The notes under the pieces were generated by a model. That model had not been told where the DNA came from, made no database searches, and was given only the letters and a program-made list of their open reading frames with translations. The translations under genes were made by a program, and so were the position numbers. Below, one piece after another: positions 38,841 through 39,043 of a stretch of 64,000 bases of DNA. The stretch lies in the sequence record PV682554.1; one strand, written 5' to 3'. Position 1 is the stretch's first letter, and every line of letters begins with the position of its first letter. The stretch is from Escherichia phage 92CQ.

Positions 38841-39043
38841 CAAAATTATTTAAAGTTTTTACAGATTTTTGGGTACAAATTTAGAAAATGAAAAGTTCAA
38901 GTTTGGTCAAAATTATTTAAAGTTTTTGTATGTATTTCTATCCAGATTTTGAAAATGAAAACTTCAATTTTTTAAAAATTCCCCAGTTTATTTAAAGTTT
39001 TTTTGCCTTTTTCCGTAGAAAAATCAAAAATGAAAAGTTCAAT
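38841..39043. repeat. iteron-like tandem array: three units of motif A (ATTTAAAGTTTTT) plus motif B (GAAAATGAAAAGTTCAA), period about 70 bp
   Basis: Motif A at about 38841, 38908, 38989; motif B at about 38883, 38951, 39026; AT-rich and non-coding. Confidence 0.6.

Follow-up and report, generated by a model that had tools for sequence, protein, structure and literature searches.

Results

Anatomy and conservation of the array

We analysed a stretch of 64,000 nucleotides of Escherichia phage 92CQ (record PV682554.1), called the window below, and describe a repeat array at positions 38841-39046, which is a real, conserved and so far undescribed cis-element. Two convergent genes have their 3' ends on either side of the array, a NADAR-domain gene on the left (38075-38626, + strand) and the gene of a protein of 88 amino acids (aa) on the right (39441-39707, - strand), and the guanine-plus-cytosine (GC) content of the array region is 20-25%. 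Over the surrounding 1.9 kb, Escherichia phage KKE7M shares 99.3% identity and many Justusliebigvirus genomes (phi92-like, Stephanstirmvirinae) share 96-98%, and judged by its sequence the window is itself a Justusliebigvirus genome. The record of the related phage alia labels the array simply as 'repeat_region', and a literature search found no description of the array or of the module around it.

The array consists of three units whose starts are 67 and 75 bp apart, and each unit carries a motif A (TTATTTAAAGTTTTT) followed at a fixed offset by a motif B (GAAAATGAAAAGTTCAA, with at most one mismatch). Unit 1 (38841-38907, + strand) has motif A at 38846-38860 (TTATTTAAAGTTTTT) and motif B at 38884-38904 (GAAAATGAAAAGTTCAAGTTT), unit 2 (38908-38982, + strand) has them at 38913-38927 and 38951-38971 (GAAAATGAAAACTTCAATTTT), and unit 3 (38983-39046, + strand) at 38988-39002 and 39026-39046 (AAAAATGAAAAGTTCAATTTC), with a conserved TTCCCCAG immediately 5' of its motif A. 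ATTTAAAGTTTTT is matched exactly at 38848, 38915 and 38990, and the window has no further copy of it even when one mismatch is allowed; matches to GAAAATGAAAAGTTCAA fall at 38884 (no mismatch), 38951 (one) and 39026 (one), so that the distance from the start of A to the start of B is 36 bp in all three units. Compared by BLAST with the window itself, the units reach E = 3e-14, and a 15-mer present three times arose in 2 of 2000 dinucleotide-preserving shuffles of the local AT-rich DNA. Since motif B of the relatives (AAAACYRAAATTTAAAGTTT) includes the core of motif A (ATTTAAAGTTT), the array can also be read as six direct copies of a ATTTAAAGTTT-like core with spacings of 46, 21, 46, 29 and 46 bp; whether counted as three units or as six cores, all copies are on the + strand. 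The sequence-only reading had seen here three units of two motifs with a period of about 70 bp, in AT-rich non-coding DNA and directly beside a cluster of palindromes, and this description is confirmed, with 21 bp between the end of the array and the cluster and no credible open reading frame (ORF) in the array region. As coding sequence the array was rejected: it has no ORF of at least 40 aa, and three ORFs of 21-28 aa are not credible.

Motifs, palindromes and AT-rich windows were counted genome-wide in the complete 148-kb genome of alia. Motifs A and B are found there in the array only. Among the 200-bp windows of that genome, the array region is second in AT content; its stability places it with the lowest 0.4% of 100-bp windows, and for helical phasing of A/T tracts at 10-11 bp it comes about seventh. 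A search for the motifs in the genome and in related phages, as the sequence-only reading had proposed, thus found the array to be unique in this relative, and among close relatives it is conserved, the 281-bp array region being 96.8-100% identical in 55 Justusliebigvirus genomes. At about 70% identity, the array is found at the same syntenic position in Citrobacter phage Tr1, in four Klebsiella phages and in Phapecoctavirus ESCO13. Across seven genomes spanning this range of about 70% identity, the mean pairwise identity is 0.86 for motif A and 0.74 for motif B versus 0.49 for the spacers between them (Mann-Whitney p = 7e-12), and the alignment of the array is almost gap-free, with unit spacings of 65-67 and 73-76 bp throughout. 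Conserved blocks with drifting spacers, a fixed spacing, a single locus and no coding, promoter or RNA-structure signal together make up the signature of a protein-binding array.

The array slot in other lineages

The slot to the left of the palindromes is filled in the other lineages sampled by a three-unit direct-repeat array with a spacing of 63-78 bp and another unit sequence, the exceptions being LTH01 and FBKp34. Compared with 67 and 75 bp in the window, the unit spacings are 65 and 77 bp in SSBI34, 76 and 67 bp in 4MG, 74 and 67 bp in Mydo, 78 and 63 bp in DU_PP_I, and 65 and 74 bp in rV5; LTH01, also sampled, has four copies spaced by 64, 32 and 52 bp. Homology between the A/B units and the units of Vequintavirinae (GGTTCTCGATC...TTTTC...GATCGTATT) was not above shuffled controls in four of six comparisons. 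Similar spacing combined with differing unit sequences across lineages points to an architecture that is old and constrained and to a recognition sequence that is lineage-specific, and constant architecture with lineage-specific sequence is the pattern that would be expected of a cis-site co-evolving with its binding protein.

The last of the lineages sampled, the Klebsiella phage FBKp34 (L054, 2298-3075), has no such array and keeps the rest of the module, that is, the palindromes, the GC-rich segment, the promoter and the gp224-like gene. In the place of the array it has unrelated AT-rich DNA with its own pair of 45-bp repeats 186 bp apart.

As a separate observation, most units of the Vequintavirinae (arrays of 4MG, Mydo and DU_PP_I; L057-L059) contain two GATC (Dam) sites each, about five per 200 bp, and the array of the window contains none.

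The surrounding non-coding module

The array slot belongs to a non-coding module of about 800 bp that is common to phi92-like and rV5-like phages. From left to right, the region 38613-39707 contains a GATATTT pair, then a hairpin, variable DNA over about 150 bp, the array with its three units, the palindromes, a GC-rich segment, a TCTTTACATTTCTTTACAAA repeat, CTACCGGCGAT with more GC-rich DNA, a leftward sigma-70 promoter and the 88-aa gene. Its right-hand part is matched in 255 phage records spanning Vequintavirinae and Stephanstirmvirinae, and the hosts of these phages include Escherichia, Salmonella, Klebsiella, Cronobacter, Pectobacterium, Proteus and others.

The left border, which overlaps the stop codon of the NADAR gene, is a direct-repeat pair of GATATTT, 10 bp apart, reported by Tandem Repeats Finder (38613-38631, + strand; two copies of CTGATATTTC). 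In the related 148-kb genome, the counterpart of 38613-38631 is the only place where two GATATTT copies stand 8-14 bp apart, and two or three copies are present at the left edge of the module in all lineages read, whatever the gene upstream. Between the NADAR gene and the array there is a GC-rich hairpin (38656-38689), a candidate terminator, which as + strand RNA has a folding energy of -18.1 kcal/mol (z = -2.9) and no clean U-run, and which is weaker on the - strand.

To the right of the array, the Fur-box-like palindrome cluster occupies 39067-39179, where the relative alia has five matches of 7-1-7 form. Such palindromes (TGAKAATNATTMTCA) occur at only two loci of the alia genome, five by the array and four at the terminal repeat (window positions 49582-49607, 49643-49657, 50525-50551 and 50721-50747), and of these four, two lie inside the repeat near its ends and two about 0.8 kb to its left. 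They match the Fur-box consensus (TGATAATNATTATCA) at 14 of 15 positions, and the label 'Fur-like' given to them earlier is fair as a description of this match, which we treat as a lead only. The palindromes are followed by a GC-rich segment (GAATAACGCGCAGGGGTGGTGTTTGTCTCGCG...CCCCTCGCCAT; 39180-39260) that is strongly conserved in the alignment of relatives. Between Justusliebigvirus and Phapecoctavirus, the GC-rich DNA at 39180-39400 is conserved about as well as a core gene, and the NADAR protein has only 57% identity; over the same positions a reading frame is not kept, and a signal of RNA structure or covariation is absent on both strands. Within it, the direct repeat TCTTTACATTTCTTTACAAA (39281-39300) is invariant save for one spacer position, is unique in the 148-kb genome and is present in all eight Stephanstirmvirinae regions scanned. 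The form CTTTACA-N3-CTTTACA is also found in SSBI34, 4MG, Mydo and DU_PP_I, and is absent from the rV5 and LTH01 sequences read. On the - strand, TCTTTACATTTCTTTACAAA reads GTAAA-N5-GTAAA and fits the CpxR-box consensus, which again is a lead only. At 39316-39400 an invariant CTACCGGCGAT precedes a conserved, GC-rich stretch whose - strand is rich in G. Like the GATATTT pair and the CTTTACA pair, CTACCGGCGAT occurs once only in the 148-kb genome.

Facing the array on the - strand stands a predicted sigma-70-type promoter of consensus sequence, TTGACA-17-TATACT (39410-39438), which matches the consensus at 11 of 12 positions here and at 9-12 of 12 in all 17 genomes compared. Its spacer of 17-18 bp is a GC hairpin just past the stop codon of the 88-aa gene, and since the spacer sequences of the lineages differ yet stay palindromic, a terminator and a promoter appear to be nested at this site. 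RNA of the - strand over 39200-39700 would be G-rich, which is suggestive, though no more than that, of a lasting RNA-DNA hybrid or primer at the site. The 88-aa protein itself (39441-39707, - strand) is a homologue of phi92 gp224, and its gene is the annotated leftward gene by the module in most genomes examined; its AlphaFold2 model has a predicted local distance difference test score of 94.6 and five helices, with no significant fold match.

Neighbouring genes, genome end and readings set aside

The proteins encoded nearby are the NADAR protein, a CapR/T5orf172 endonuclease, a generic AAA+ ATPase and the 88-aa protein without a recognisable fold, and none of them is recognisable as an initiator. 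The AAA+ ATPase (35883-37010) was considered as a candidate initiator and set aside, as its matches are to generic AAA families only. The gene at 37085-38074 encodes the CapR-domain/T5orf172-type endonuclease, and relatives have at this position a longer endonuclease, a DNA methyltransferase or other small genes instead, which suggests that the slot just upstream of the NADAR gene is mobile or exchangeable. To the right, between the module and the genome end, closely similar promoter-plus-leader sequences (of the type TTGACA-16-TAAGAT, then a GC hairpin) precede several small + strand genes. Located at 40068-40161, 40435-40500, 43048, 43388, 46603-46688, 47166-47296 and 48039, they make up a putative early-promoter cassette that is repeated.

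Positions 50458-50800 match the annotated right terminal repeat of phi92 (343 bp) with 96.5% identity, and the record of BME3 begins at window position 50799, both of which place the physical genome end, by comparison with these records, at 50458-50800. The array is 11.4 kb from this terminal repeat, or 8.3% of the genome length. With the terminal repeat mapping at that distance, we rejected the array as a genome terminus or pac site. The DNA at about 49.6-50.0 kb, left of the terminal repeat, is the counterpart of the most AT-rich window of the related genome.

Several further readings of the array were discarded. A sigma-70 promoter in each unit is not what is found: there is one weak match (9 of 12, in unit 2), it is not conserved, and units 1 and 3 have none. 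The reverse complement of motif A resembles the T4 late-promoter motif (TATAAATA), and a class of phage late promoters was rejected, because the 10-mer is confined to its three sites in the array and precedes no gene; likewise, motifs A and B showed no enrichment upstream of genes. The array had no match in Rfam at gathering thresholds or at E <= 5, RNA folding on both strands was the same as in shuffles (z = +0.49 and -0.05), and no tRNA remnants were found in the array region. A scan of IMG/VR for the pattern of three A motifs gave two true relatives, the rest being chance matches in AT-rich giant-virus bins, and in the plasmid collection there was no homologue of the array, the only matches being to the palindromes, in Moraxella plasmids. 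A BLAST comparison of one palindrome with E. coli genomes was uninformative, the query being too short.

Discussion

What these data support best is that the array is most likely bound by a protein in a sequence-specific way, through a site of strict geometry in DNA that melts easily. The earlier proposal was of replication-initiator iterons or of an array for a DNA-binding regulator; it is supported in part, the array being conserved and having the signature of protein binding, and the array differs from classical iterons in its period of 67/75 bp versus about 22 bp, with no adjacent Rep-like gene and no DnaA or IHF sites. Between an origin and a regulatory array, the computed data do not separate. 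We tentatively rank first, with confidence well below even, the reading in which the array forms the lineage-specific arm of a replication-origin-type element. In such an element, three bipartite units, each of motif A, a variable spacer of 22-23 bp and motif B, would offer fixed distances on easily melted DNA phased by A/T tracts, and the units would be bound by a phage-encoded protein that wraps or bends the AT-rich DNA. A leftward transcript starting at the sigma-70 promoter (39438-39410) would cross the GC-rich segment and the palindromes and could help to open the AT-rich array, where a T7-type replisome (PolA and a gp4-like primase-helicase) might then load. Protein binding, transcription through the array and any link with replication are in this proposal what we infer. 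An origin role is placed first because the composite is origin-like, with direct repeats, palindromes, AT-rich beside GC-rich DNA and a strong promoter without a downstream gene, because it occupies a single genomic locus, because it is conserved across a very wide group of phages, and because no origin is known for these phages, which carry a T7-type replisome. For rV5-like phages, both the T7-type replisome and a skew analysis in which no origin was found have been reported (PMC3606486).

A number of observations weigh against an origin of this kind. No initiator or Rep-like gene was recognised adjacent to the array, the nearby AAA+ ATPase matching generic AAA only and the linked 88-aa protein lacking a recognisable fold. 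Classical iterons have a period about a third of the 67/75 bp seen here, and no DnaA sites (TTATCCACA, within one mismatch) or IHF sites (WATCAANNNNTTR) were found in any of eight relatives. In a regression of GC skew on gene strand and replication direction, the coefficient at the array was 0.003, that is, no signal; gene strand accounts for 70% of the skew, and the replication term at the array adds nothing. Less stable DNA than the array exists elsewhere in the genome, the promoter stands 360-580 bp away, further than in the origins of T7 or T4, and a literature search found no experimental data on transcription or replication in these phages. Moreover, FBKp34, which has the rest of the module without the array, indicates that the array may be dispensable or replaceable.

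The array could instead bind a transcription regulator or an architectural protein with no part in replication, controlling or insulating the boundary between the block of middle genes on the left and that of small early genes on the right, for instance by stopping or modulating the transcript of the leftward promoter jointly with the palindromes and the CTTTACA repeats. We consider this possible, if rather doubtful. The conservation signature is the same as for an origin, the array lies between convergent 3' ends and downstream of a conserved leftward promoter, the palindromes and direct repeats of the module fit consensus sequences of host regulators, and the skew analysis lends an origin no support. 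However, the leftward promoter has no downstream gene to control, and its transcript would be antisense to the NADAR gene; a module of 800 bp with at least six conserved classes of motif would be elaborate for a simple insulator, and no regulator has been identified. In a further reading, the array would be the specificity arm of an undescribed composite control element that all rV5-like and phi92-like phages have in common. This element, either an origin or a switch of replication/transcription, would fire on leftward transcription by host RNA polymerase and be gated by host stress regulators through Fur-type and CpxR-type sites, thereby tying the start of replication to the iron and envelope state of the cell. 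We regard this reading as unlikely.

Other explanations are less probable still. The array might act as RNA: as part of a non-coding transcript read leftward (or rightward), its repeated motifs would be a decoy or sponge. A precedent exists in the rV5-like phage PhiTE, whose pseudo-ToxI repeats mimic a type III antitoxin and are used against ToxIN (PMC3475682). A related phage group thus uses a repeated non-coding RNA against ToxIN (PMC3475682), and here a conserved consensus promoter faces the region, but the units are not head-to-tail repeats of 34-45 nt, their spacers are not conserved, no Rfam family is matched at E <= 5 and the folding energies equal those of shuffles (z = +0.5 and -0.05), all of which makes an RNA function improbable. 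We give slightly less credence to a function in handling the DNA end, either as a pause or stop signal for stepwise injection, like the injection-stop signal of T5, or as an accessory packaging site. The array is placed at 8.3% of the genome length from the right terminal repeat and forms the inner edge of the block of small genes, at least some of which have closely similar sigma-70 promoters, and the same family of palindromes recurs in and just left of the terminal repeat. In T5 the injection-stop signal is likewise situated about 8% from one end, and repeats and palindromes abound in it. On the other side, the physical ends are 11.4 kb away, and we know of no two-step injection in these phages. 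The module is also present in Certrevirus (DU_PP_I), to which PhiTE presumably belongs. Where a genome is permuted, being at a set distance from an end would mean nothing, and PhiTE has been reported as circularly permuted (PMC3475682). Finally, tandem duplications arise easily in AT-rich intergenic DNA and FBKp34 does without the array, which would be compatible with a local triplication devoid of function. This we strongly disfavour and hold to be the least probable explanation, as the motif blocks are kept while the spacers diverge, the spacing is fixed across relatives of about 70% identity, and arrays of three units, differing in sequence, turn up in six more lineages.

The phi92-like and rV5-like phages are widely isolated and are present in therapy and biocontrol collections, and the array with its module of about 800 bp is a large non-coding element recurring across the group. 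If this element is an origin, it would provide a defined target for studies of replication, for phage engineering and for phage-dependent replicons. If, on the other hand, a switch gated by host signals turned out to be true, these would be unusual virulent phages that read Fur- or Cpx-type signals of their host.

Comparison with known systems

The T5 injection-stop region resembles that of the array in clustering non-coding direct repeats and palindromes, in its distance of about 8% from a genome end and in bordering a block of early genes. T5, however, has a terminal repeat of 10 kb and proven two-step injection, whereas the repeat here is of 343 bp, and the module is found also in a genus with permuted genomes. 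The centromere sopC of the F plasmid (12 x 43 bp) is similarly made of direct repeats of tens of bp, each with a short protein-binding motif, but here we are dealing with a virulent phage, with only three units and with no genes of ParA/ParB type seen beside the array. The pseudo-ToxI of PhiTE is likewise a non-coding repeat locus in an rV5-like phage; it differs in being at another locus and in consisting of 36-nt head-to-tail repeats that fold as pseudoknots, whereas the array shows no RNA-structure signal or Rfam match.

Similar in layout are the primary origin of T7 (promoters and an AT-rich region) and ori(uvsY) and ori(34) of T4 (a promoter and an unwinding element), since here too a conserved promoter, predicted to be strong, faces an AT-rich region without a downstream gene, and the replisome of PolA and primase-helicase is of the T7 type (PMC3606486). 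Unlike in those origins, the predicted promoter is of the host sigma-70 type and is 360-580 bp off, with palindromes and a GC-rich segment in between, and a repeat array is present, which neither the T7 nor the T4 origins have.

The array is most like the iteron origins, such as lambda ori with its four O-binding repeats and the iterons of plasmids and of P1 oriR. Like them, it places several direct copies of a specific motif, all oriented alike, at one locus; the DNA that holds or adjoins these repeats is AT-rich, melts readily and is probably bent, a promoter is close by, and the sequence is lineage-specific within a conserved architecture. It differs in its bipartite motif and its period of 67/75 bp, compared with iterons of about 17-22 bp set some two helical turns apart, and in having no adjacent or overlapping initiator gene that is recognisable and no DnaA or IHF sites; initiation, moreover, is here something that we infer. 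Since the repeats differ from the classical ones in size and spacing, we would file the array, on the evidence of its sequence, as a variant of the iteron type rather than as a member of it.
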